DNA from: Mizuhopecten yessoensis
Lineage: Eukaryota
NCBI RefSeq assembly: GCF_002113885.1
Contig: NW_018403789.1
Span: 1,045,570 to 1,109,569 of the forward strand
Direction of reading: 5' to 3'
Length of the DNA stretch: 64,000 bases
The notes below the pieces were generated by a model. It was not told where the DNA came from, did no database searches, and saw only the letters and a program-made list of their open reading frames with translations. A program made the translations under genes and the position numbers. Shown here in pieces: positions 511-60,090 of the stretch; the first letter of the stretch is position 1; every line of letters starts with the position of its first letter.

Positions 511-9159
<8,649 letters not shown>

Positions 9160-13105: not shown

Positions 13106-13319
13106 CACAGGGACCTGCTAATTTGTTACAGCTATATTTGGACCTAAACTAAAATGACATCCCCAATGATGATAATATACGAGAAAGGGCTCGTATATTA
13201 TCATCATTGGAGTGGCATTTTGATCGAAAATTTATCTAAACCCCCCAAACGTGTAAAATTTGTCTAAACACTTTAGTTTACGTTCAAATATAGATGTAAC
13301 AAATTTGCAGGCCCCTGTG
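13106..13319. mobile_element. Palindromic MITE with CACAGGG termini (family also at 28033-31460, about 31840-31992 and about 61440-61502)
   Basis: TIRs CACAGGGACCTGCTAATTTGTTACAGCTATATTTG / CAAATATAGATGTAACAAATTTGCAGGCCCCTGTG; internal hairpin CCAATGATGATAATATACGAG-AAAGGG-CTCGTATATTATCATCATTGG. Confidence 0.8.
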
Positions 13320-13339
13320 CTCACGACGTACGCCCGCTA

Positions 13340-14560
13340 CGTGCTGGTTTTTAGAAATGGTGGTATTTTAAGAAACAATGAAAATTGGACATATAACGGA
13401 TGTCCTTTGGAAATCGTAAATGAATTTAATTATCTAGGTATGTTGTTAAATTACAACGGCACTTTCAGAAAAACACAGCAAAAAATAGCAGATCAAGGAA
13501 GGAAAGCTTTATTTTCAGTTATGAATGTATGTCGTAATAATTATTTTAATATTGAAACCCAACTATCAGTATTTGATACATATGTAAACAGTATTTTGTG
13601 TTACGGTTCAGAAATATGGGGTTTTCATAAAGCCCCGGATGTTGAAAAAATACATATTATGTTTTGTAAAAAATTACTCGGTGTGCGTAAAAATACTTGT
13701 AATGCTATGGTCTATTTAGAGCTTGGTAGATATCCATTATCACTGCTGAGGAAATTCAGAATTTTTAAGTATTGGATAAAGATTATAAATACTGATAATT
13801 GCATTTTAAAATCATGTTATGAAGACATGTTAGTGCGTAACGACAAATGGGTAATTAATATCAAGAATGAATTATATAGAATAGGTCTAGGTTACATATG
13901 GCAAACAGATAACATTGATAATAGCTGTTTGATTATAATTAAAGAAAGACTTTTAGATATTTATAGACAAGATTGTATAGAACAAATTAGAACATCATCA
14001 AAAGGATTTTTTTATACATGTCTTAACAAAGAAGTTGGTATACAGGGTTATTTAAGAAAATCGTTTATGAAAGGTTACTTAAAAGAAATAACAAAAATTC
14101 GGCTTTCAGCCCATAATTTAAATGTAGAGAAAGGTCGTTATCAAAATATTCCGCGACTTTTAAGAATCTGTACCGCTTGTGATATAGATGATGTCGAAGA
14201 TGAATTTCATTTTATTCTTAAATGCCCCTGTTATTCTGATTTACGTGAGAAATTTTTAAAAAAGTACTATTGTAAAAAACCGAGCATGTTTAAATTAATT
14301 CAGTTATTTAACGGACAAAACACAAATGAATTAGCAAAATTGGCCAAATACATTAAAGCTGCAAATTCAAGAAGAGCTTTATTAACATAAGTAGTTATGC
14401 TCTCCGAGTGTTTTGTCTCGTCTGTGTATTTATTAGTATTTTCGATATTTGTCAATGTTATGAGAAAGTATATATATATATATATATATATCATGTATAT
14501 GTGTTACACTGATGAGTCGCAAGACTCAAAGTTAATAAAGAACTTGAACTTGAACTTGAA
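13340..14560 (+). mobile_element. 5'-truncated RTEX-like non-LTR retrotransposon (ORF2 C-terminal part, 3'UTR, (GAACTT)n tail)
   Basis: Open frame with FNYLG, YGSEIWG, ELGRYP, RLSAHNL and CxxC...EDEFHFILKC; AATAAA followed by GAACTTGAACTTGAACTTGAA. Confidence 0.88.
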
Positions 14561-21500: not shown

Positions 21501-24157
21501 AGGAGGGAGGAATGTAGCAAAACTAGGCTGGGTCGATCCTCAGCGCCCAAGTGGCTCAGTTGTTAGAGCGTCTGTCTAAAGTTCAGAGAGTCCTGGATTC
21601 GAACTCCGGTCTAGCTCTGACCGTGCATTTCCCCGCTCCTGTTACACATGTGTACAAGGTGCGATGATCAAGAACTAGTTCGAGTTGAACTTGACATATA
21701 TTCGAAACCAAGTCTTACTGTCACGGTATATATATAGGTACATGTATATGTATATCTTTTCTGCTCCCCTTCGTGACAATTAAAGACTTACGGCTTACTA
21801 TTTGATTAGTTCCATACATCAATACCTTACCCTAATCTTGTATTTTGAAGATTATGAGAACACCTTTTTTGAGATCGTTATGCTCCCGTGCCATTCACTT
21901 TGATAGTTTAATTAAAACACAACTCTGAGATAGCAGGTTCTGCAGGATTCCGTAGCGGTTTCTAGATTAGTGAACTCGTGATCGGAACACCGATTCTGTC
22001 ATGAGAAAACCCAGGAATGCAGAGTTGATACGGGGTATCAAAAGTGAGAACCTTGTATTTCGAAGTTGGTGGTGCCGGTGAAATCCAAGCGGTGACATTT
22101 AAGCAACCTTTTTATCTCGACTTTCTGTCTGCATGAATTTTGTATTTCGAAATGTCCGTCATCAAAAGTCTGTTTAAATATGATAGTATTGTTTGAAAAT
22201 ATTTGCTACCTAATGACAAAATACAAATGTACCAATCCACCACTGGTCACAAACGATAACCCTAATGTACCAATCCACCACTGGTCACAAACGATAACCC
22301 TAATGTACCAATCCACCACTGGTCACAAACGATAACCCTAATGTACCAATCCACCACTGGTCACAAACGATAACCCTAATGTACCAATCCACCACTGGTC
22401 ACAAACGATAACCCTAATGTACCAATCCACCACTGGTCACAAACGATAACCCTAATGTACCAATCCACCACTGGTCACAAACGATAACCCTAATGTACCA
22501 ATCCACCACTGGTCACAAACGATAACCCTAATGTACCAATCCACCACTGGTCACAAACGATAACCCTAATGTACCAATCCACCACTGGTCACAAACGATA
22601 ACCCTAATGTCCTCTTCAGCACAAGCCAGGAAATAATTAATAAGATCAGACTTTAAACGAAATGAAACAGGTGAAGTTTAAGAGGATCAGACTTCAAACG
22701 AAATGAAACAGGTCGGTTTTCTTTTCAATTAGACATAAAAAACAAGCTATTTAAATGTTGTTAAACATGAAACAAGATTTTGATTTGAATGCATGACTGT
22801 TTGCAGGCCGGTCTCCGTGCCTAGTATTGTGTACTTTTTTAGATTAGTTTACAAGTCTCTTCTATTGAACATTAAACCTGTGTAGTCGTTACTCTAATTG
22901 CCTTAACCTATTTTACTGTATGCAATCTACGTTACATACTATACTATGGGTGTCTAAAATGTTTGTATTCCCACCCGGAAAGTGCTTAGGTAAGGCCTCC
23001 CACCTATATATTTGTTGGAGGGGAACTAACATGTACATAATATATACAACAACATTTGATATAGCACCCTATCTAACTAACATAGGCCACTCTAAAGCGC
23101 TTTACAGTACATGGAGATACAATGGATACAATTAGCATAGACATTAATCAATACAATTTTATGTAATGAATCGAGTTGTCATCTCCAAAATATTATAACC
23201 TCATGGCAGGGACACTTATTAATTAGATAAAAACAAATACTGTAAATGATGACCAGGTGCCTAAAATGTCCGTTTGTCCTTTTCAGGGTTTTGATGGTGG
23301 TCCTGTGGCTCCCTCCTTGTATTCTAGACCGGGTAAACAACTCCGTACCTTACGAATGCACCTGGGAACCATCCAAAAACAAGGAGTTCGTCATTGTCAT
23401 AGCAACCATTGGCCATCATGGATCATTCGTCGTCATGTTGTTATGCTATATAAGAGTCTTTCTTGTTGTTCTAAACCGGAAGAAGGTTGGGGCGGTATAT
23501 CATCATACTAGTCCAGAACTCGTGAGGAAAACAACGAATCTTGTTAAAATTTATGCAAAGTCAGATACAGACATAAATCTTTCAGATCAAGCGACTGAAA
23601 AAGCTCTGAAAGCATCATCGGCTGAAAAGGTTGGTGATCAAAAACTTGGACCGGAAATGACGACGAATTCAGCGTTTCCCTGGAAGAGTGACCCGTATCT
23701 CAGACCTGACTCGTGTAAAACGTTATTGGAAAAGAACGACAAGAAAGCATTTGTTTCTACCGTTACCATAACAACAGCAGCGTCCGGAGCACTGGAGACG
23801 GATAGTCATACAAGTGACCTTCCGTCTAAAAATGACCAGGAGAGACCACACATAAGGGACCGAGGTCATTCCAAGAAGAGGAAACAAAAAGAGGACAGAA
23901 AATACGAACGAAACGAAAGGAAAGTTTTCAAAACTCTAACCTACATTTTAGTCGGTTACGTTATCTGTTGGCTTCCGTTTCACATTGTGTTTGACGTCAG
24001 TTGTGCCATGCCGGAAGTAGTCCCGCCACTTGTTTTCAATATCACATTTTGGTTGTCGTACATGAATTCCACGATAAACCCATTCCTTTATAATTTTAGC
24101 AGTGCCGAATTTCGTGCCGCTTCTAAGGCTCTGCTATGCAGAAAACGTCGCACTTAA
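18110..24157 (+). CDS. Class A (rhodopsin-like) GPCR of biogenic-amine receptor type; exons 18110-18588 and 23287-24157 (alternative starts at 18035 or 18131)
   Basis: GN (TM1), NLAVTD (TM2), WPFG..C, TM3 Asp (WIFVDY), DRF, long IL3, CWLPF and NPFLY motifs; N-terminal NSS/NST sequons. A phase-2 intron TG|GTAAGT...TTTCAG|G rebuilds the TM4 Trp. Confidence 0.92.
21543..21646 (+). mobile_element. tRNA-derived SINE or tRNA-like repeat in the GPCR intron
   Basis: A box TGGCTCAGTTG and B box GGATTCGAACTCC, followed by a non-tRNA tail (CATTTCCCCGCTCCTGTTACA). Confidence 0.65.
22226..22610. repeat. Perfect 38-bp minisatellite (AATGTACCAATCCACCACTGGTCACAAACGATAACCCT)x10 in the GPCR intron
   Basis: Ten identical head-to-tail units with no spacers. 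Confidence 0.97.
23287..24157 (+). CDS. GPCR exon 2 (TM4 to C-terminus)
   Basis: Acceptor TTTGTCCTTTTCAG at 23286, in frame with ORF 23246-24157. Confidence 0.9.
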
Positions 24158-31404: not shown

Positions 31405-32200
31405 TCACCCCTTAAACGTGAAAAAATACTTTAGCTGTAACAGATTCTCAAGTCCCTGTGTAAGGTACTACTATGGCGAACTGGTCAACCTGGGAAGCGA
31501 GCAATTTGAATATCTTCATATTATACATTAAAATAATTGCAATGTATACTTGTATGACTTGAATTCTATGGGGTTTTCCACTGCTTTCCATAATGTTCAA
31601 AATCGCAGAAAAATGTATCTGAAATTACTGTAGATGTAAAAAGTTACAATGTACGATATGTCCATAGGGTACCTGAAATAAAAGTTTAAAGCAATATCTT
31701 GAATTGATAGTTTATAGCACTTATGTCAGATCGATAGGTATCCCTAACACATTTACCCTTCTAACAAGTCATTTTGTATAGAAACCAAAATTGTCAGTAT
31801 GTTTCCAAAACACTAGATATCGAAGAACAGAGTTCTGAGTAATTTTACACGTTTTTGGGGTTATGATCAACTTTTTGTAAATTACGTTAAAATAATGATT
31901 AAATTAAAAGTTTATCTCAATCTCTTAACGTGTAAAGTTACTCTGAACACCTCATATGTCCAAATATAGCTGTAACAAATTATAAGGTCCCCTTGAAATT
32001 AGCGAGGTTCCTTTCCATCTATAGTATAATACATGTACCTTTTATAATATAGATTTTGGTCTTCAATGCTAAACAGAACCCAGTAAATATAATTTAACAA
32101 AAAAGTATGTAACATACATGTAACTACCTAACTATTTTCACCGAGGATATTATGTTTCAGATACATTAAGGGACAACGCCCCGAGTCATTGCCAGTCAGC

Positions 32201-32986
32201 ATGGCTTCGGCCATAACACCTGGAATAGACCTTCCGACGGACATCCGACAGTTTGTTGGCACGTACATGGGTAAAAAGATTAAACAAAATGCACGTGAAT
32301 TATTCACTAATATCAGACTTGTTGATTTACACGTGAAACCGTCGTATCTGTTGGACTTTGGTGTGGAGGGTATCGAAAAACTCGTGTCACTGATAGAGGA
32401 GATGAAGACTAGGAGATACATAACAAATATCTTAAATATATTACAACTTGGTATGGATGTTATTATAATGTGTCCGACAATTATTAAAACGATGCAATGC
32501 CCATCAACCGAATGGGAGTCTAAATTCACTATCGTTGATGTCAGCAAACGACGAGGTGCACCGGAAGTTATGTGTAAATGTGTTCACGTCTTTGGCCAAT
32601 TAAAACAGGTGATCAGTACTATAGATCCGGATTTTGAGCATATCAGGTTGGTCATTGTGGACTGTAAAACTGCAAACTTGACCACCATTTTCGGCCTGTT
32701 GCTAGGTTACCCAGTCGTATATTGGTTTGAAAACGAGGATGGATTAATGGCGAACTGTTTAGACATGGAACCTCTCGTGAACTTCAAGGTTATGGGTCAA
32801 GGTCAAAAGAACGAAAGTGAACATTGTGTATACTCTTTTTCCATCCCACAACGTGTGTTTGCTAACCTTCAGGATAAGGTTACTGAATGGTTCAAGGTCA
32901 TTTATGACAATTCTGAGTGGACACGTGTCTTTTGTGATCTGACCTTAACCCACACGACTGTACAGTTAAATACAGTCGCTTTATGA
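32201..32986 (+). CDS. C1orf74: UPF0739 protein C1orf74-like (DUF4504) homolog, single coding exon, 261 aa
   Basis: Intact ORF from ATG 32201 with recalled family motifs VDLHVKPSYLLDF, NLTTIFGLLLGYPVVYWF, NCL, YSFSIP and C-terminal VAL; acceptor TGTTTCAG at 32160 upstream. Confidence 0.8.
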   Translation: MASAITPGIDLPTDIRQFVGTYMGKKIKQNARELFTNIRLVDLHVKPSYLLDFGVEGIEKLVSLIEEMKTRRYITNILNILQLGMDVIIMCPTIIKTMQCPSTEWESKFTIVDVSKRRGAPEVMCKCVHVFGQLKQVISTIDPDFEHIRLVIVDCKTANLTTIFGLLLGYPVVYWFENEDGLMANCLDMEPLVNFKVMGQGQKNESEHCVYSFSIPQRVFANLQDKVTEWFKVIYDNSEWTRVFCDLTLTHTTVQLNTVAL

Positions 32987-49279: not shown

Positions 49280-49640
49280 GGATATTGTTTGGAGTCCTGA
49301 CAACGGTTAGGGTCATACGAGGACAGGTGCCTAGGGCGACACCACCGTAAACAGAAAGTAGAAGATATTTATAAGACAAGAAAAGCAAAAAAAAAATTAA
49401 AAAAAAATCAAGTGTTGCAACGCGGGAGCATATCCGTTCTGGTCTCTGTAGAAGACACTGTAGACAACGCTCGATTCTGAAGGAGACCCCACCTTTGTGA
49501 CAAACACATGTAGTGGGATACATGATTGTTTCTTCAATGTCTCTTAAACAGAAGAACAGGGAAGAAACCATCCCCGAGACAGCATTTGTGGGGGGACCGC
49601 TATACGATTACGCAGTGGGCTGCAGCAGGCCTATCTTTCT
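49280..49640 (-). mobile_element. SINE-like dispersed repeat, related to 59320-60300
   Basis: Shares GGTCATACGAGGAC-GGTGCCTAGGG, AAACAGAAAGTAGA, AGTGTTGCAA, GGAAGAAA and CAGCAGG-CTAT with 60059-60300. Confidence 0.55.
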
Positions 49641-49783
49641 CTGAACCTGCACAAGTTTGTCGGGACATCGTATTTGTGATTTGAATATTGATTACCGTGT
49701 GAATGTTTGATCTACTCTTAAGGGTAGAAAGGTCAAACGATACCTAGATTAATTTCTAGTGTTGTCTTTCTGTATGTTACTGT

Positions 49784-49971
49784 ACTAACATATTCCCGCG
49801 GTTCGGAGAATAGCGGGAATTATTTGTCTTATCGGTTCGATACGGATATTGCCGAGTGTGCTTAGCCAATCGGATTGGCTCTGTATGTAGCACGTACGAT
49901 ACGTGTCAGCGTATCGGGTACGTGGGTCATTTTCTAGCCGCCTTTTCAGCGCGACGGTCATATTAAATTTT
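49784..49971 (+). repeat. Split direct repeat A1 (pairs with A2 53892-54077)
   Basis: ACTAACATATTCCCGCGGTTCGGAG...CGGTCATATTAAATTTT, nearly identical to A2. Confidence 0.92.
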
Positions 49972-49982
49972 TCTTATGAATC

Positions 49983-52826
49983 ATGGATGAACTTACGAAA
50001 GCAGATATTTCACAGCAGGTAGGAGCGGCAGTTTCAGCTTCCAGAAACGAACTTCTAACTCAATTAGACACGTTGATGACTTCCAAGTTTGGGCGTTTCG
50101 AAACCCAAATTGCAGACACTCAGTAAACCATTACGGAGACTCAGTTGACAAAAATCCAGCAGGGTATAATGTGCATGGACAGTTATAAATTCAATAAGAA
50201 AAGCTGTGAGGAGCAGCACAAATTTAACAACAAAGTTGTGACAAAGTTGCATGAAGCTCGGCAGTCAAACCAGGCCGGCGACGCGCGGGACACGAACGAA
50301 AAGATTACCGAAGGTATTAATTTAATGGCATACAGACAAAAACTCATAAAATTGGCAGATTCGTCTGACGCGGGTTGGAAGACGGTAGAGGAGTACGTCA
50401 CAAACCCTATCGCTTCGGATTCCGACGATGAAAAAAGAATGGACAGGACCAGGAGCAGGGCGAATAGGAAAGCTAAAACACAGAAGCAGAAACCAAGGAG
50501 ATTCCAGAAGGATCGTTTTCATCATTATGATGAGGGCGCATTGGACACGCGTGTCACGACAACAGGCGGGCGGGCGGTTATGGACAGACCACCGATGTTA
50601 AAACCTGGGACTTGTTTCTCTTGTGGTAACACAGGTCATTGGAGGAGGGAATGTCCGACAGTGAGGGGTATCCCCGCGACAGCAGGAAGGGCTAATGAAA
50701 AGATAAGTACACTTTTATTGTTTGATAAAAATGTAGATGTGGCTGATGAGTCAATGATAGTAAAGTCCGTAGTAGAGGCACATTCGGTAGTAAACACCGA
50801 TAGTACAGCACGTGTTTGTGAAACACGCCCACTCGGTCGGTTGAGAGACAGTGTTGATGTATGGGTAAACGCAGGTACGTGCGAGGCTGTGTTACAGGTC
50901 TTTCGTCAAGGATATAATTTGCCGTTCAAATCTCTGCCATTAGCTAGAGTTTTGTTCAACAATAGGCCCTCAAAAGATAATCCAAGTTTTGTGGATAGTG
51001 AGATAACCAATCTCATTCGTATTGGTTCTGTCACAGAAGTTTCGGAACAGCCTGTAGTGGTTAATCCACTGACAGTGGCATACAGCAAGAAAGGTAAGCC
51101 CCTCGTTTTAGATTGTAGGCACATAAATCCGTGTTAACATCAGTTTATATTTAAATACGAGGACGCGTCTGTAGCCAGGGACATGTTCGAGGAAGGTGAC
51201 CATGTATTTACATTTAATTTAAAATCGGCTTACCACCATATAGAGATATGGCTGGAGCACAGAAGGTACCTAGGATTTTCTTGGATATTAGAAGGTAGGT
51301 TACGGTATTTTGTGTTCAGTGTGCAACCGTTTGGGATCGCTACGGCAGGGTATATTTTCACAACGGTCACACGAGAGTGTGTGAAATACGGGCGATCGAA
51401 AGGTCACCACGTGGTAATGTACCTCGACGACGGTATAGGAGGACACAACCAGGCTGGCAAAGCAGCGGAAGTAAGTAAGGATGTGAGGCATAGTTTAACG
51501 CAGTTTGTCTTCATCAGCAGACGAAAAGTGTAGTTGGGAGCCATCACAAAATGCCACACGGCTAGGCTACACGTGGTTTTTCGAGGAGGGCGTGGTCAGG
51601 ATCACCATGGAAAGAATGACTAGGTTATTGACATGCCTAGACAAGACCTTGACGTTGATTGGCAGAGGTGAGGAATTGTTCGAAGCCAGATGGGTGGCAG
51701 GTATTGTTGGTGAGATCATCTCAATGCAAGGTGTGTTTGGACGGCAGGTAAGGTTGAAAACTCGGTGTTTGTACAACACTGTTTTGACAAAGGCAAGCTG
51801 GAATGCGCCGGTATTTATGGGCTCGGAGGCTATAGACATTGGAGGTCACATGCAGAGGGCATGAACTGCAAGGGCAGTGGGTTGAAGGAAAACGGTTGCG
51901 TCACTGGGACAAATACCGTTATGGTGTGTACGGATGCCTCCGACACGGGCTATGGTGGCTATGTATATACCGAGAACACTCTGGCTGAGAGTGAGTGTAA
52001 CGGAAAGCCTTTGGTAGGCATTCCCGTTGACGCTGATATGCAGTATGATCGAGCAGATCGACAATGTGTGTTGGGTTCATGGGAGGCCTCGGAGGCAAAG
52101 CGTAGCTCTTCTTGGAGAGAGTTAGAGTGGGCTAAACGGGTACTGCTATCGGTAAAGAGTATAGTAAAGGGGGTGAAGGTAAAGCTAGTAATGGATAGCA
52201 AAAATGCATGTAGTATTGTTCATACAGGGAGCAGAAAACAAGATTTGCAGGATATAGCATTAGCGATAAACGAGTGTTGCGGGACGGAGCACGAGCTGGT
52301 GCAATTTCAATGGGTCCCTAGGGAGTTGAATACGATCGCAGATTTTCTTAGTAGATGTTCGGACTGCGATGACTGGGGGATTCAGTCCTGGGTTTTTGAA
52401 ATATGTGAGGCGCGTTGGGTCCACATACAGTGGATAGATTCGCGTGTGATTACAACGCAAAATGCTTGCGTTTTAATTCGCGATGGTGGTGCAGCGGCAC
52501 AGAATCAGTGGACGCTTTTTCGCAGGTGGATGGTTCCCCCTCCTCGTTTGGGCTGTACAGTTTTGGGAAAGATAAGGCGGGATTGTGCCGCGGGCACTTT
52601 GGTGATTCCTGAATGGGCATCCGCACCCTACTGGCCAGAATTAATCGCGGAGAGATCAAGCTTAACAAGTTCCGTGGTCGACTGGATTTCATTCGGTCAC
52701 GACGAGGTGACAATGGCTGGTAGGGGTAATAACGGGATATTAAGTCATAAGACTTTAAATTCAGAATGTTGGCTTTCAGGTTCATGTGAGATTTATGAAT
52801 ACATTTTCCTTTTTCTGCAGGTCTGA
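49983..52826 (+). pseudogene. YR-retrotransposon gag-pol (Gag with CCHC knuckle, RT, RNase H, methyltransferase-like domain), disrupted
   Basis: ATG 49983; stops at 50124 and 51135; frameshifts near 51500, 51840 and 52420-52520. Motifs RQKLIKLAD, CFSCGNTGHWRREC, LKSAYHH, PFG, YLDD, TDAS, WRELE, N-IADFLSR, DRFA and GTLVIPEW. Confidence 0.88.
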
Positions 52827-52891
52827 GGTCAAAACAGCACGTTGGAGAGGCGCTCAATGAGGCCGGAATAGAGGAGGGGAGTTACCTTCAT

Positions 52892-53743
52892 ATGCTTGGC
52901 AGTAGTATGACGGCCAGACTTCCGGCATGCAAGGCGGATAGTACCAACACGAAGTATTTTGCTTTGTATAGGAGATGGGAGAGTTTCATACCCGATCAAG
53001 GTTTTCAGGCTTTGCCGGCCGACTCAATTCACATTGCATTATTTTTGACGCATTTATTAGACAACGGTGCTTCAACTGCGGTGACGGAATCGGCCATGTA
53101 CGCCATCAAATGGGCGCACGATATCACCGCATTGTCGGATCCTACCAATAACGTCTTTGTCAGAAATATTGTGGAATCAGCAAGACGAACTGTTAAAGCT
53201 CACGTTAAGAAGATTTTGTTGAGTTTCGCCGCGTTTTTAAGATTTAATGAATTCGTTTCTTTGCTTTGTTCGGATATTTCGATTAGGGACGATCATTTTT
53301 CGATTAAAATTAGAAAGGGTAAGACTGATCAGTATCGTCAAGGGGACGAAGTTGTCGTTAGTAAGGGCACTACTTCAGCATGCCCCTTGTCTATGCTCCT
53401 TCGTTACGATGATCTTGCAAAGATCGATTTCGAGTCTGAGGATTATTTGTTTAAGCAGGTCGTGCGATCGAAAACGCAGTGCGGATTTATTTTTAAGAGC
53501 AAACATTTGAGTTACACGGTGGTTCGAGAGTCTGTTTTAAAGCGCCTAAGGTTAGTAGCCGTGGATATTGATATCGGGCTACATTCTTTGCGTGCAGGAG
53601 GGGTTTCAGCCGCATCTGGGCAAGGTTTGAGCGATAGGTGTCTGATGAGGCATGGCAGGTGGCGCTCACAGTTGAGCAAGGACGGCTATGTCAAGGATAG
53701 TTTAGACAATCGGTTACAAGTCAGCCAAAAGATCGGTATTTAG
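52892..53743 (+). CDS. Tyrosine recombinase of the YR retrotransposon (appears internally deleted between AHVKK and ILLSF)
   Basis: Catalytic set FLRFNE (R), KTDQ (K), HSLRAGG (HxxR), HGRW and KDGY (Y). Confidence 0.88.
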   Translation: MLGSSMTARLPACKADSTNTKYFALYRRWESFIPDQGFQALPADSIHIALFLTHLLDNGASTAVTESAMYAIKWAHDITALSDPTNNVFVRNIVESARRTVKAHVKKILLSFAAFLRFNEFVSLLCSDISIRDDHFSIKIRKGKTDQYRQGDEVVVSKGTTSACPLSMLLRYDDLAKIDFESEDYLFKQVVRSKTQCGFIFKSKHLSYTVVRESVLKRLRLVAVDIDIGLHSLRAGGVSAASGQGLSDRCLMRHGRWRSQLSKDGYVKDSLDNRLQVSQKIGI

Positions 53744-53823
53744 GCGTTAATCGTAAGCGGAGTGTACATTTTATACGGCTAGATAAATTTGGTTAACTTT
53801 TCCTTCTTTGTTATTTTCTATAG

Positions 53824-54077
53824 CGCACGGCGGGCTAGGCGGGCAAACTGATATGTTTGTGTCGTGTTGTTTATGACGTAGTAGAGATTGGACTAACATA
53901 TTCCCGCGGTTCGGAGAATAACGGGAATTATTTGTCTTATCGGTTCGATACGGATATTGCCGAGTGTGCTTAGCCTATCGGATTGGCTCTGTATGTAGCA
54001 CGTGCGATACGTGACAGCGTATCGGGTACGTGGGTCATTTTCTAGCTGCCTTTCAAGCGACGGTCATATTAAATTTT
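53824..54077 (+). repeat. Split direct repeats B1 (53824-53894) and A2 (53892-54077)
   Basis: B1 matches B2 over 71 bp with one mismatch; A2 matches A1. Confidence 0.92.
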
Positions 54078-54611
54078 AATAATATAGCTTTTGGCAGGGT
54101 CAGCGGATTAGCGTTACGTGGATATTGTAGAGTAAACCCAGCAACTTGAAGTGTCGAGCCTTGAAGGGCTGGTGCACCTCCTGACTTGTCTGGTTTACCA
54201 GTTATTTTCAGGTTGGTTGGCTCACTCGGCTTCCCATTCTCTACTATATCGCACTAGTGTTTTATCTTGTGTATCATAAGGGGAAAGATACACGTGAGAA
54301 AGATAAAAGTACGGATTGATATGTATGTATAATAATAGCATTAGAATTGCATATGTAAAAGTTTTTTGTGTATGAGCGTTTGTCAAGATTTTCAAGATTT
54401 CAAGATTTTTTATTTCACTCAGACACACATAATATGTGTAACAAGAGGTCATGTATATATAACATAGTTTGAGTGCATGACAGGCAAACATTCTATACCA
54501 TAGCATAGTACATAAAAATATATATACGTGTAGTTACATACAAATAATTCAGTGTTCAACTTATATAAAATGTCACTAGCAAACAAAAAAAAAACTTAAA
54601 GAATAGAGACA

Positions 54612-57600
54612 CTAAAGTACTTTTGTTAATTTTTGAACAAATAAGCTTACACTTTTTAACAATTTCATATTAAAGATTGTGAACATTCCTTTCATTTTAT
54701 GTTGGTTTGGACTTGTATAAAAATAGGCCGGAATATGTTTTTCCCTTATTTTGACTAAAGTGTCGTTATTACAAGTATATAAGTAATGATACTCGTCCCC
54801 AATACCAGTATTACAAAGTGGGCATATTCTGTCCTGTCTTTGAATTCCCACCCATCTTCCTGTTTCTACTGGAAGCTTAATATTTGAAGTTCTAAATTTG
54901 CAGATAATTTTCCTATCTTTTGCGTTTAATCTGATCAAATAGTCTTCTAAACCAAAGCGATATTTAAATGTAGAGTATAATCGTCCTCTGGATGAGGTGT
55001 CAATTTTATTAAACCAGGATTGAATAAACTGATCGTGTAATTTATGTATAATTGCAGCTTTTAAATAAGTAATATCGGGCAGACAGGTTTTTTGATGGAT
55101 CCAAACATAGCTTAGACCTACGCTATCCAGGATATGTTTAACATAGTTCAACCATTTAAACTCGATTTGTCCATTTTCATGTAATGAGTACATCAATTTG
55201 TACATTCGACTAGACAACTTATTTTCACTCGAGGTAAGTGTATACCAAAATTTAATCATTCTTAATTTGACATCAACCTCAATAGGGTATCTGCCCGTTT
55301 CTCCATATACCATAAAATTACAAGTATTTCTGCGTAGACCAAGAATTCGTTTACAGAATTGGAGGTGTATTTTTTCAAGTATACTAACATCCTCATGGCC
55401 CCATATTTCTGATGAGTATAGCAAAATTGGAGCAACTAGCGAGTCAAACAATTTGAATTGTAAATCAATGGGTAACGAAACATTTCTTATTTTCTTATAT
55501 ACGGCATATAGTGCTTTTTGGGCCTGTTCCGCTAATTGCTTTTTTGCCACTACAAACCTCCCATTATAGTAAAATAGAACACCTAAGTATGGAAAAGAAT
55601 CTTGAATGTCTAGCTCATTATCCTGTAATAGAAATCGATATCTGTTAGTATTCTTTCGTTTAGAAAAGATGACAATTTTTGTCTTCTGTGTGTTTACCGT
55701 TAGTTTCCAATTCTCACAATAATCCTGAAATTTATTTAGCATTGATTGTAGACCATCTGCTGTCTCTGACATTAACACTGTATCGTCAGCATATAAAATA
55801 ACAAAAAGCTTTACGTACATACCAATATGATCATGACAAAGTTCATCAATCTTTAGTAAACAATCGACATTTTTTTCCAATAAATAGTCTTCTAAATCAT
55901 TTAAAAATATTGCAAATAAAAAAGGCGAGCAATTTTCACCTTGTTTTAGTCCGACATTTGAAGTGAACATTTCTGACATTTCATTCCCATTTCTCACACA
56001 AGATTTCGTATCAGAATACATGTTAATTAAAACTTTAAATATTTTACCAGTTATGTTACATTTGAGTAGTTTTTGCCACAAGCCTATTCGCCACACCGAA
56101 TCGAAGGCTTTTCTAAAGTCAACGAATGCACAATATAGTTTTCTACCGGAGGATAAATATAACGTTGTCAAAACGTGTAAAATAAAAATGTTGTCTAGTG
56201 TTGAGTGACCTTTTCTGAAACCTGCTTGTGCGTTACTTATGAGTTCAATTTCATCAGATAGTTTGTATAATCTTGCATTTAAAATCGACGTAAAAACTTT
56301 TCCCAAGCACGAGACCAACGTAATAGCCCTGTAATTATCCAACTTTTTGCGATCACCTTTGTTCTTATAGATTGGATTGATTATTCCTGTACTCCAACTT
56401 TCCGGTATTATACCAGTGTCCAATATTATATTAAACATATCAATATATACAGGTAACATTGTGTCAACCGTACTCTTTATGTATTCATTGACTATATTAT
56501 CAATACCACAAGCTTTGTTATTATTCAAATGTTTTATAGCATGAACAATCTCATCAGCAGTAATTCTATCATTCAAAATATTATCATACAAACATTCATT
56601 TACAGGTGGAATTTCAAATTCCTCCTCTGTTTCATTATTAAGATTCAATTTTTTAAAATAGTCATGTAGTTCGTCTATTGTCAGATCAACTTTACGACGA
56701 CCTTTAGGCTTATCAATTCTATTCAAAATATCCCAGAAGGCTTTTGGTTTAAATTTGGAAGCTTTCCTCATTTCATGTTCAATATTTTCTTGGAACTTTT
56801 TATAGCTACTATTAATGAGTTTTCTGTATTCTCTACCTTTTTTGTTCATTCTTTTCCGATTTCTTTGGCTTTTAAAGTTTTTGTAATCTCTCTTAGATTC
56901 ATGAAATTCTTTTCTTTTCTTAACACATTCACGGGTAAACCAGGGTTTATCCTCTTTGGTGAATACTTTTTTCCCATTGTGCACTTTTTTTGTTCCAAAA
57001 ACCTCTCTTGCTGAGTTCAAAAACAATTCAGCAATGTTATTTACTAAATCGTTTACATCGTCTCGCGATATAATCTCAATTGGAGACTCGTGTATATTTT
57101 TGATTTTTGAATTAATTTCGTGTAATTTGCCCCTCTCGTCCATATGTACTGTAGTTACGAAATCAGTTTGTTTTTCGTTTACCCATTTACCGATTCTCTC
57201 AGTAAGATGAACCGGTTCCTCGTTTTTGTATACGGATTCAGAATATTGAATGGTAAATTTTAGTCTACAGTGCACGTCTGAAATCAAAGGATCAAAGTCT
57301 AAAACTTCAAAGTGACATAAGAGAGGAAAAACATTGGACGATACAATCAAATAATCAACTACGCTCACATATTTACAAGTATTCTTACCAATGAGTCTAT
57401 CATTGCCGACTCTACCGTTTGCAATGTATAAATTATTATTTTTACAAAAATCAAGCAGATTACGACCAAATGTATTTGGTCTTGCTAGGTCTTGACTCGT
57501 TCTTTGAAGCGGTACCCCAAAACGGGTTAACTCTTCGTAATCATATAAATACTCATGCAAATCGTCATTTTCATGTATATTCAATGTTTCAATTAAATGT

Positions 57601-58112
57601 TCATCTGGAACGATATAATCGTCACAAGTATTAGTTCTGGCATTAAAATCTCCGATAAGTATAACTTTTTTGTCATTTTTAATTAAATTAATCATTTCGC
57701 CCTGAATCTCTAAAAATGCTTCATTAGAAGCATACCTGGACGTTTCGGGGGGTACATACACACAGCCCACTAATAGAGTGGATATGTTATTACTTGCACG
57801 TACCTCTACCCACTGGACGAACTCGGATGGAGTTTTTGGAAATAGAAGTAATGATTTATACTTTTCTTTAAATATTGTAATTATTCCGCCAGATTTTTTT
57901 TTTGTGTTAGGTCTGTTTTTAGCTACATAATCATAGCCGTTTGGCATTTTAAGAATGTCCAGATCGTCAGTTTTAGTTTCAGCTAATATAACGACGTCGT
58001 GAGACTTCACAATATCAGAGAATTCTGGTAACAGGATTTTAGACCTGACACCACAAATGTTAACAAACGTGAATTTTAAGTCCTGTACCTCCTGACCTCT
58101 TGTGACGTGATC
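54612..58112 (-). CDS. LINE ORF2: APE endonuclease, reverse transcriptase and C-terminal Cys/His motif (uninterrupted; no AUG before the first APE motifs)
   Basis: VNICG, AETK, YVPP, GDFNAR, VVDY, SDVH, NYRAITL, DFRKAFD, GLKQG, YADD, YLG, CPLC...DEYH...C motifs. Confidence 0.92.
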   Translation of the reverse strand, partial: DHVTRGQEVQDLKFTFVNICGVRSKILLPEFSDIVKSHDVVILAETKTDDLDILKMPNGYDYVAKNRPNTKKKSGGIITIFKEKYKSLLLFPKTPSEFVQWVEVRASNNISTLLVGCVYVPPETSRYASNEAFLEIQGEMINLIKNDKKVILIGDFNARTNTCDDYIVPDEHLIETLNIHENDDLHEYLYDYEELTRFGVPLQRTSQDLARPNTFGRNLLDFCKNNNLYIANGRVGNDRLIGKNTCKYVSVVDYLIVSSNVFPLLCHFEVLDFDPLISDVHCRLKFTIQYSESVYKNEEPVHLTERIGKWVNEKQTDFVTTVHMDERGKLHEINSKIKNIHESPIEIISRDDVNDLVNNIAELFLNSAREVFGTKKVHNGKKVFTKEDKPWFTRECVKKRKEFHESKRDYKNFKSQRNRKRMNKKGREYRKLINSSYKKFQENIEHEMRKASKFKPKAFWDILNRIDKPKGRRKVDLTIDELHDYFKKLNLNNETEEEFEIPPVNECLYDNILNDRITADEIVHAIKHLNNNKACGIDNIVNEYIKSTVDTMLPVYIDMFNIILDTGIIPESWSTGIINPIYKNKGDRKKLDNYRAITLVSCLGKVFTSILNARLYKLSDEIELISNAQAGFRKGHSTLDNIFILHVLTTLYLSSGRKLYCAFVDFRKAFDSVWRIGLWQKLLKCNITGKIFKVLINMYSDTKSCVRNGNEMSEMFTSNVGLKQGENCSPFLFAIFLNDLEDYLLEKNVDCLLKIDELCHDHIGMYVKLFVILYADDTVLMSETADGLQSMLNKFQDYCENWKLTVNTQKTKIVIFSKRKNTNRYRFLLQDNELDIQDSFPYLGVLFYYNGRFVVAKKQLAEQAQKALYAVYKKIRNVSLPIDLQFKLFDSLVAPILLYSSEIWGHEDVSILEKIHLQFCKRILGLRRNTCNFMVYGETGRYPIEVDVKLRMIKFWYTLTSSENKLSSRMYKLMYSLHENGQIEFKWLNYVKHILDSVGLSYVWIHQKTCLPDITYLKAAIIHKLHDQFIQSWFNKIDTSSRGRLYSTFKYRFGLEDYLIRLNAKDRKIICKFRTSNIKLPVETGRWVGIQRQDRICPLCNTGIGDEYHYLYTCNNDTLVKIREKHIPAYFYTSPNQHKMKGMFTIFNMKLLKSVSLFVQKLTKVL

Positions 58113-58472
58113 CTAGTGGTGCTCATTGTTCCGTCCCGGGGGTAGGGCTCCGTTGTGCGGATTCCTTGGGGGTGGGGCTCTATAGGGTTCCCCATTGACG
58201 TATAACGTGTCGTAACTGAGGGTAGCCCTATTGCCACGGCGCTTCTGTTCCCTCATTATTGGGTACAGAACGGCTCGTCTTTGGGCAATTTCAGGAGGGT
58301 ATTGCCGCTGAACACTGAACTCCGGTTTATCTCGAAGCTTGATAGGAGCTTCTTTGAGGACTCGTTCCAAGTCATTGAAGTTGGCAAATTTGGCAATTAT
58401 GCTACGAGGCTTGCCGTCACGTCGCTGTCTCAGGCGGTGTACGTTGTCGAATGATATGCCGTCGGGATTGTA
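58113..58472 (-). CDS. LINE ORF1 C-terminal part (L1-ORF1-like RRM/CTD)
   Basis: FDNVHRL...PRSIIAKF...QYPPEI..RR..L...LSYDTLYVNGEPY pattern. Confidence 0.8.
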   Translation of the reverse strand, partial: YNPDGISFDNVHRLRQRRDGKPRSIIAKFANFNDLERVLKEAPIKLRDKPEFSVQRQYPPEIAQRRAVLYPIMREQKRRGNRATLSYDTLYVNGEPYRAPPPRNPHNGALPPGRNNEHH

Positions 58473-58522
58473 TGTCAATGTATGTTATTTTTGAAACACA
58501 TCAATTAAATGCTTGACCATAA

Positions 58523-58593
58523 CGCACGGCGGGCTAGGCGGGCAAACTGATATGTTTGTGTCGTGTTGTTTATGACGTAGTAGATATTGGACT
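58523..58593 (+). repeat. Split direct repeat B2 (right end of the YR element)
   Basis: CGCACGGCGGGCTAGGCGGG...GATATTGGACT, matching B1. Confidence 0.92.
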
Positions 58594-58760
58594 GTTATAT
58601 CACTGTGTCTATAGAAAGGTCAAACGATACCTAGATTAATTACTAGCGTTGCATTGTCTTTCTGTATGTTACTGTACTGTTATATCACGGTGTCTATAGA
58701 AAGGTCAAACGATACCTAGATTAATTCCTAGCGTTGTAGAAGTATGTTACTGTACTGTTA
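58594..58760. repeat. About 85-bp host tandem repeat that is the YR element's target; the first part of the interrupted unit is at 49725-49786
   Basis: TAGAAAGGTCAAACGATACCTAGATTAATT...GTATGTTACTGTACT|GTTATATCAC at 49725, 58611 and 58696. Confidence 0.85.
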
Positions 58761-59088: not shown

Positions 59089-59361
59089 ATGTTGTACCGC
59101 ATGTTTGTATTTTTATGTCATCATTGGATTACCACAAGTTATGCACGAGCTGTTCCGGAACCGGATGTTTGCTCCACACTTTTATTTTACTGTACATTGA
59201 TAAAACTGGAACTTCAGAAAATACAAGATCGAGCGATCAGTTTCATTTTGAAAGACGACTTGTTTGCCTGGCTAACATTGTCAGTTAAAAGCGTGCTGTA
59301 TCTGTAACACCTTATTTGCTTATTTTGTTTTGTTTGTTGTTTAATGTCCTCGCAACAAACA

Positions 59362-60090
59362 AGGTCATACGAGAAAGTATGCCCAGGGAGGTACTACAGC
59401 CATGGTCATACGAGGACGGGTGCCCAGGGAGGTACAACAGCCATGGTCATACGAGGACGGATGCCTTGGGAGGTACAACAGCCATGGTCATACGAGAACG
59501 GGTGTCTAGGGAGGCACAACAGCCATGGTAATACGAGGACGGGTGTCTAGGGAGGCACAACAGCCATGAACATACGAGGAGGGGGGCCTAGGGAGGTACA
59601 ACAGCCATGGTCATACGAGGACGGGTGCCCAGGGAGGTACAACAGCCATGGTCATACGAGGACGGGTGTCTAGGGAGGCACACCAGCCATGGTCATACGA
59701 GGACGGGTGTCTAGGGAGGCACAACAGCCATGGTCATATGAGGACGGGAGCCTAGGGAGGAACAACAGCCATGGTCATACGAGGACGGGTGTCTAGGGAG
59801 GCACAACAGCCATGGTCATACGAGGACGGGGGCCTAGGGAGGTACACCAGCCATGGTCATACGAGGACGGGTGCATAGGGAGGTACAACAGCCATGGTCA
59901 TACGAGAAGGGGGGTTAGGGAGGTACAACAGCCATGGTCATACGAGGACGGGGGCCTAAGGAGGCACAACAGCCATGGGCATATCGGGACGGGTGCCTAG
60001 GGAGGCACAGCAACCATGGTCACATGTGTACGGGTGCCTAGGGACGCACAACAGCCATGGTCATACGAGGACGGGTGCCTAGGGAGGCAC
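59362..60090. repeat. 41-bp GC-rich minisatellite (CAGCCATGGTCATACGAGGACGGGTGCCTAGGGAGGTACAA)n, about 17-18 copies, embedded in a SINE-like element (59320-60300)
   Basis: Unit spacing of 41 bp (59397 to 59438). Confidence 0.93.

Follow-up and report, generated by a model that had tools for sequence, protein, structure and literature searches.

The window analysed here is a stretch of 64,000 nucleotides (nt) of the Mizuhopecten yessoensis genome (assembly GCF_002113885.1, contig NW_018403789.1, forward-strand positions 1,045,570 to 1,109,569), and all coordinates are those of the window. It contains a tyrosine recombinase (YR) retrotransposon on the forward strand, bounded by split direct repeats in the order A1-B1-A2-B2, and we consider how relatives of this element may express gag, pol and the recombinase from one transcript by using two splice donors with a single acceptor. 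Repeat A1 forms the left end of the element (49786-49971, the end being approximate) and is a 95% match to A2 (53894-54077). B1 (53820-53893, the start being approximate) abuts A2 at 53893/53894, while B2 (58519-58592) forms the right end. The coding region comprises gag (49983-50702), with 240 codons up to the end-of-gag site and a zinc knuckle at around 50607-50657 (PF00098, E = 1.1e-6); pol (50703-52790, the end being approximate), which is in frame with gag and contains a linker, reverse transcriptase (RT), RNase H and a methyltransferase-like region; and the YR exon (52821-53743, phase 1). The match of the recombinase to PF00589 is weak in the window, and has E = 2e-10 in the related copy L023.

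Zinc-knuckle gag, RT/RNase H and YR share one orientation, and the internal repeats lie downstream of YR. A methyltransferase-like domain follows RT/RNase H. In a related family (L029) it matches PF05869 (Dam) with E = 1.3e-5 and 25.4 bits, below the cut-off of 28.1; the corresponding stretch of the window aligns with it at 66% identity and has no Pfam match of its own. Judged from these features by the structural criteria of PMC4157794, the element is a PAT-like YR retrotransposon. It resembles PAT-like (Pat1-type) elements of the order DIRS in the A1-B1-A2-B2 repeats with the internal pair after YR (PMC4157794, PMC3266345, PMC9210276), and in its zinc-knuckle gag, RT, RNase H, methyltransferase-like domain and YR in the same orientation. 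Published PAT-like elements have three separate, often overlapping open reading frames (ORFs), whereas here gag and pol form a single frame and YR is, we propose, a spliced exon. Note that the PAT-like label rests on structure; our YR tree comprised families of this genome only. Membership of Ngaro was rejected because a methyltransferase-like domain is present (its absence is the Ngaro criterion in PMC4157794), and of the DIRS1-like group because the repeats are direct and split, with no inverted pair of arms at the element ends. The nearest named homologues are found in scallops and other bivalves.

The window copy is dead, because its gag is interrupted by a premature stop (TAA, 50124-50126), its pol is broken by a stop and frameshifts, and its YR exon has a 90-bp in-frame deletion at 53212/53213 relative to sister copies. 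The gag stop had been recognised in an earlier interpretation made from the letters alone (the sequence-only reading), and it leaves this copy itself unable to make the fusion protein discussed below.

The sequence-only reading proposed that the recombinase is expressed by an in-frame splice that removes all of pol and joins the N-terminal part of Gag to YR (Gag-N::YR). Its sites are present. The donor, D1 (50311-50319, AAG|GTATTA, GT at 50314-50315), follows the gag ATG at 49983 by 110 codons and one base, i.e. it is in phase 1. The acceptor AG (52819-52820) ends a pyrimidine tract starting at 52801, and the following exon, starting at 52821, continues in phase 1 into the YR frame through 23 sense codons before 52892. 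A rough count of pyrimidines puts the acceptor in joint first place among the AG sites of the element; D1 is only a moderate donor, as had been said, ranking 34th of 295 GT sites by matrix score. Two details fared less well. Pol was thought to end at the acceptor, and does so only in the frameshifted window copy. Sister copies L014-L016 stop 34 nt upstream, and the pol stop is 34-67 nt upstream in families F2, F3, F5, F7, F9 and F11, so that in intact copies the acceptor sits in a non-coding spacer. The YR ORF was placed at 52892, where the window indeed has an ATG; this is private to the window copy, three of the four sisters having ACG and the fourth (L014) an insertion, and five of the six RNA reads of run X19 carry C for T at 52893. 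Elsewhere, L023 lacks any YR ATG within 300 nt, and in L017 and L018 the earliest comes no sooner than +278.

For comparison we used 110 stretches of this genome (L012-L121). One search listed 150 of 193 matches, and the part of the listed matches that was examined favours long open frames and gag matches. At 80% identity the stretches form 35 families, of which F1 and F4, merged through an unrelated insertion, were separated by hand. A YR tree of 25 families has two fully supported clades, with the window in clade I. In most clade I copies gag and pol constitute one open frame, as in L023, where 1044 codons end 37 nt before the acceptor. Codon tests were made without F12-F20 (clade II) and, by hand, without F29, F30 and F33.

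Both sites of the proposed splice are conserved beyond coding constraint across families, a check that the sequence-only reading had called for. The glycine codon split by D1, which falls within the conserved core of Gag, is GGT in 16 of 17 families and ranks first among 50 conserved glycine columns (median 0.38, next 0.62). Four-fold degenerate sites agree between families at 0.30 against 0.26 by chance, so the families are near-independent at silent sites. Within the window's family GT is retained at D1 in all eight copies that cover the site, and the acceptor in all six that cover it. In 15 clade I families the acceptor is YAG|G at the homologous position, its phase relative to YR being 1; the degenerate F28 was excluded, and F24 was not mappable. 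Among 120 public YR homologues 59 reach at least two residues upstream of the boundary, and 53 of these have [TSAP][GDEV] there, which fits nCAG|G at the level of amino acids; upstream of the boundary 23% of residues are phenylalanine, compared with 4% in background. The sequences upstream of the acceptor revealed no branch-point motif in common.

Genomic copies that lack the predicted introns provide direct examples of the junctions. There were 34 candidate gaps, repeats of one insertion having been merged by hand. Twelve of them are insertions in the partner or DNA foreign to the element and were discarded, and a single event accounted for two entries, leaving 21 distinct internal deletions of at least 150 nt. 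Three end at the acceptor, and all three begin at D1 or at a second donor, D2, described below; none of the remaining 18 ends at the acceptor or begins at either donor. In L061 (F2) and L027 (F3) the missing stretch is 2.6-3.2 kb, bounded by GT and AG at the homologous D1 and acceptor, and Gag-N is joined to YR in phase. L027 retains all four repeats and has no visible terminal poly(A), in keeping with reinsertion through the pathway of the element itself. The L061 copy ends at B1. In L028 (F6) the missing stretch is exactly AAG|ATAAGT..TTTCAG, from the end of gag to the acceptor, and the copy then runs into a gap. L028 (oriented 3685-5961) is without pol, 97-99% identical to full-length sisters and open in its gag and YR frames; from its sequence it appears to be a young non-autonomous derivative.

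The same D1 junction is present in public proteins. A Gag-N profile was compared with 1.84 billion proteins, and seven of the best 150 matches show similarity to YR. A pearl oyster model (P0271), a hemichordate RefSeq protein (P0269) and an ORF on a 3.8-kb ENA contig (P0226) all have Gag-N joined to YR at the D1 glycine, as does a full 460-residue hemichordate RefSeq fusion (P0309) from the P0269 cluster. P0270 is considered later; deletions or weak matches account for the remaining three. Neither the L061 fusion frame, compared with longer proteins, nor the N-terminal region of Gag gave any match in homologue searches, while Gag clusters in the Atlas are unnamed zinc-knuckle clusters only. 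The D1 intron has U2-type character, i.e. GT..AG ends, a pyrimidine tract and precise removal (in DNA copies and protein models). With conservation beyond coding, two copies lacking the GT-AG stretch and four public proteins joined at the same glycine, the Gag-N::YR proposal is well supported, and we have little doubt that the splice from D1 to the acceptor is real in this group of elements.

The sequence-only reading is likely to be incomplete, in that a non-GT donor located where gag ends shares this acceptor. Following the zinc knuckle almost every family carries [AC]AG|nT[AG]AGTA. In the window this site, D2, is AAG|ATAAGTA (50700-50709), with a predicted intron start at 50703 in phase 0. 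Among 54 copies with the full pattern, drawn from both clades, its first base is A in 41, T in 11, C in two and G in none; elsewhere the pattern occurs 12 times in 298 kb, four of them with G. In each of 12 families the serine codon within D2 is AGT, and this column ranks first of 31; too few families were available for a ranking of the lysine column. In the window's own family five of nine copies have the exact site, two differ by one base and two have lost it. Among 39 public proteins with a knuckle, 30 have [KQ][ILM]S within 32 residues of it, and valine, which a G as the first base of D2 would encode, occurs there in none, compared with 18 of 95 in a background set. In clade I the site is in phase 0 to gag, whereas the clade II site comes shortly after the gag stop and in another frame, so the constraint is on the nucleotides.

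Clade II has further features of its own. In L043, L044, L047, L049, L052, L057 and L059 gag is closed by a stop of its own and the pol frame overlaps it, in most cases with a methionine early on; F15 and F17 carry a weak GT site in place of the D2-type site. In F13, F15, F17 and F18 the phase of this site in pol fits a candidate YR acceptor, hinting at Pol-N::YR fusions, and an additional AT site lies in the early part of gag in F14 and F19.

If D2 were spliced to the acceptor, the YR exon would be read in phase 0. In the window this reading meets TGA at 52824-52826 after one codon. Across families there is a stop (TAG, TGA or TAA) after one codon in 14 of 15, and after seven in F6; codon use predicts 6.3 (P about 2e-5, the commonest state of each family being entered by hand). 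Conservation of the stop because pol ends at the acceptor was considered and rejected, since pol of intact copies stops upstream. The predicted product is full-length Gag with an immediate stop, and three RefSeq Gag proteins (P0157, P0158 and P0173) end in K-A-stop. P0158 can be read from locus L040 over 215 of its 216 residues. For its last residue and stop we combined every cut in the final eight codons with every AG or AC acceptor of the 7.7-kb locus. Within that locus there are three solutions, none with GT or GC, and one is an AT donor at D2 with the acceptor before YR. Non-consensus introns are not known to enter RefSeq other than by way of transcript alignments. One sea-urchin Gag has two RefSeq isoforms (P0168 and P0307), which terminate at the D2 lysine or three residues beyond it, suggesting, from the protein sequences, the same boundary in echinoderms.

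Other accounts of D2 were rejected. A frameshift or readthrough signal has no place where gag and pol share one open frame, as they do in most clade I copies. The register A|GT four bases inside D2 is not the main cut, since L028 and P0158 cut before the A, P0270 being the sole case for it. U12-type 5′ splice sites are of the ATATCC type (in part PMC1557818); D2 is not a U12-type AT intron, ATAAGTA being the U2-type consensus with a changed first base. We regard productive splicing from D2 as likely.

We therefore propose that active relatives of the window element make three proteins from one transcript, and give this scheme as a whole a probability of about 0.78. Unspliced RNA would serve as genome and encode Gag-Pol. 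A GT-AG splice from D1 (50314) to the acceptor (52820) would fuse about 110 residues of Gag to YR, and the Gag-N piece could conceivably carry the recombinase into the particle. Splicing from D2 (50703, non-G) to the same acceptor would yield free Gag of about 240 residues; since gag and pol are one frame, this splice is the likely supply of free Gag. The junctions would arise by the spliceosome, and the spliced RNAs would sometimes be reverse-transcribed and reinserted by the element's own proteins. A G at the first position would make D2 a near-perfect donor, likely stripping pol from most transcripts; A, T or C would weaken it and keep it leaky, leaving enough unspliced RNA.

Several observations weigh against this scheme. 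All three genomic junctions have 2-4 nt of microhomology, which is expected from AG|G at both sites, but also fits deletion, and we found no processed copy of the window's own family in searches of the genome. Neither did four raw RNA runs list a junction from D1 to the acceptor or any other (69, 0, 15 and 9 reads; all shallow), and none of the sequences listed as matching the element is on record as RNA. If there were no splicing, the pol-less copies, which come from loci selected for gag or YR matches, would be ordinary microhomology deletions and the fused proteins artefacts of gene prediction. We find this scarcely credible. It would require three independent deletions in three families to share one right end and two conserved left ends, when the other 18 share neither, and would leave the synonymous-site constraint at the donors unexplained. 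Furthermore P0158 needs an AT-AG intron within its locus, a type that ab initio gene finders are not known to model.

Some evidence runs counter to D1 as the source of the recombinase. In F4 (L022, L025, L091, L093 and L094), the sole clade I family without GT there, D1 is GAGG|GCGTGG, a poor donor; the acceptor and D2 of this family are intact. In four mussel models the junction to YR starts in early RT, and in one in RNase H, so that the acceptor agrees and the donor differs. The early-RT joins lie in the region equivalent to D4 (51091-51099, AAG|GTAAGC), an additional strong phase-1 GT site in early RT of the window that is a candidate only. In X19 each mate direction covers the 5′ half of the YR exon at a depth of 4-9, while the depth is at most 0.33 in the bin that holds the acceptor and zero over 50014-50641, unlike a Gag-N::YR mRNA of the window's family. 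The profile fits use of the acceptor or a nearby start, and is at odds with a Gag-N exon of that family in the sample. The recombinase might thus come mainly by another route, either from its own ATG after an internal start, as an ATG just upstream of the acceptor in some families (F8 and F10) would allow, or as Gag-linker-RT fusions from downstream phase-1 donors, which exist in the linker and early RT of many families and one of which the mussel models use, with D1 minor. We consider this very unlikely, given that both in-frame processed copies use D1 and none a downstream donor, that D1 is the most constrained glycine codon, and that L023 has no nearby YR ATG.

The case for D2 in the proposed scheme meets objections of its own. 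Its use rests on one genomic copy (L028) and on gene models that may be predictions, and P0270 joins YR at the GT four bases inside D2. In fungal (Aspergillus) telomerase RNA the same hexamer, AUAAGU, nearly prevents the second splicing step when it is the donor (PMC4299874), although there the outcome is cleavage only, while here the hexamer is conserved in a protein-coding frame. D2 could then be mainly a decoy alongside genuine D1 splicing, protecting unspliced RNA because U1 binding ties up the acceptor or because the site is only cut, the AT-AG splices being rare leaks. Exclusion of G at the first position while the rest of the consensus is kept agrees with a decoy, as do the first-step-only cleavage of the Aspergillus RNA and the use of a decoy 5′ splice site by Rous sarcoma virus to keep its RNA unspliced (PMC3082916). 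Strong canonical GT sites occur 50-130 nt after D2 in seven of 13 families (L019, L022, L023, L024, L029, L032 and L033); they are enriched (eight in 2.5 kb against 23 in 33.7 kb, P = 0.001), five are in phase 1 and three in phase 0, and no processed copy uses them. Such sites would need suppressing, as a decoy might do. Yet a decoy accounts neither for the conserved phase 0, the one-codon stop in 14 of 15 families and the Gag proteins ending K-A-stop, nor for free Gag from a single Gag-Pol frame, and we judge it unlikely in comparison with productive splicing at D2.

Other features of the locus may be noted here. The spacer between A2 and B2 holds a 4.1-kb insertion on the reverse strand (54390-58469), with a frame of 1166 codons (54612-58112) that, read by eye from its translation, is like that of a long interspersed nuclear element (LINE). 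It is probably younger than the YR element, since it lies inside the spacer and its frame is uninterrupted. The YR element is inserted in an 85-bp tandem repeat at GTAC|TGTT (49776-49790 and 58583-58690), and this target and the B/A junction (GGAC|TAAC) have the core ACT in common; no target-site duplication was found at the element ends. Just upstream of the gag ATG, A1 has a donor-like GT (49918) and a second strong acceptor-like AG (49948), and there is an acceptor-like AG at the start of B1 (53822). Stretches elsewhere in the window (23246-24154, 32132-32983, 13257-14387, 59271-60080 and 5181-6054) hold further long frames, by eye one resembling a G-protein-coupled receptor and one that is LINE-like, together with an array of 41-bp tandem repeats, of which a stray unit lies at 49300, and a gap in the assembly.

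In retroviruses the env gene, downstream of pol, is expressed by splicing out pol. The present scheme differs in that the spliced gene is the recombinase, and in its fusion to about 110 residues of Gag. The negative regulator of splicing of Rous sarcoma virus is likewise a donor-like site in gag and may balance spliced and unspliced RNA; that retroviral site is non-productive, whereas D2 leaves joined products (PMC3082916). Ty1/Copia elements such as EVD of Arabidopsis share a single Gag-Pol frame with a spliced subgenomic RNA for excess Gag (PMC5580714). In EVD, splicing is linked to premature termination and has its focus in the protease region, whereas here all of pol is removed from a non-GT donor and, in our proposal, the same acceptor also makes the integration enzyme. 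Human non-canonical 5′ splice sites rank as GC > TT > AT > GA > GG > CT; AT, TT and CT, the three starts at D2, all appear in that ranking, and are mostly minor in human genes (PMC6280755).

Our literature searches found neither the Gag-N::YR splice nor the non-G donor in print. The accessible text, without supplements, of PMC7192593, PMC9341512, PMC4157794, PMC3266345, PMC6681497, PMC3783388, PMC9210276, PMC8547959 and PMC2632668 has no account of splicing in native YR retrotransposons. As far as that text goes, the literature on DIRS and PAT elements is silent on how the third gene is expressed and how Gag and Pol are balanced. The scheme offers exact junctions for both, backed by genomic copies that resemble reverse-transcribed spliced RNA. 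It would imply that annotated stand-alone YR ORFs of this clade begin in intron sequence and lack their true N-terminus. On balance, and with less confidence than in the scheme itself, we favour the view that a widespread clade of YR elements in molluscs, hemichordates and probably echinoderms sets its ratio of Gag to Gag-Pol to recombinase with one acceptor and two donors, one of them a near-perfect U1 site held to any first base other than G, productive AT-AG, TT-AG and CT-AG splicing being a conserved control device and not noise. If this is true, the donor that never has G would be a natural, conserved case of non-GT splicing for the control of dosage, useful for study of the second step of splicing without the first G.

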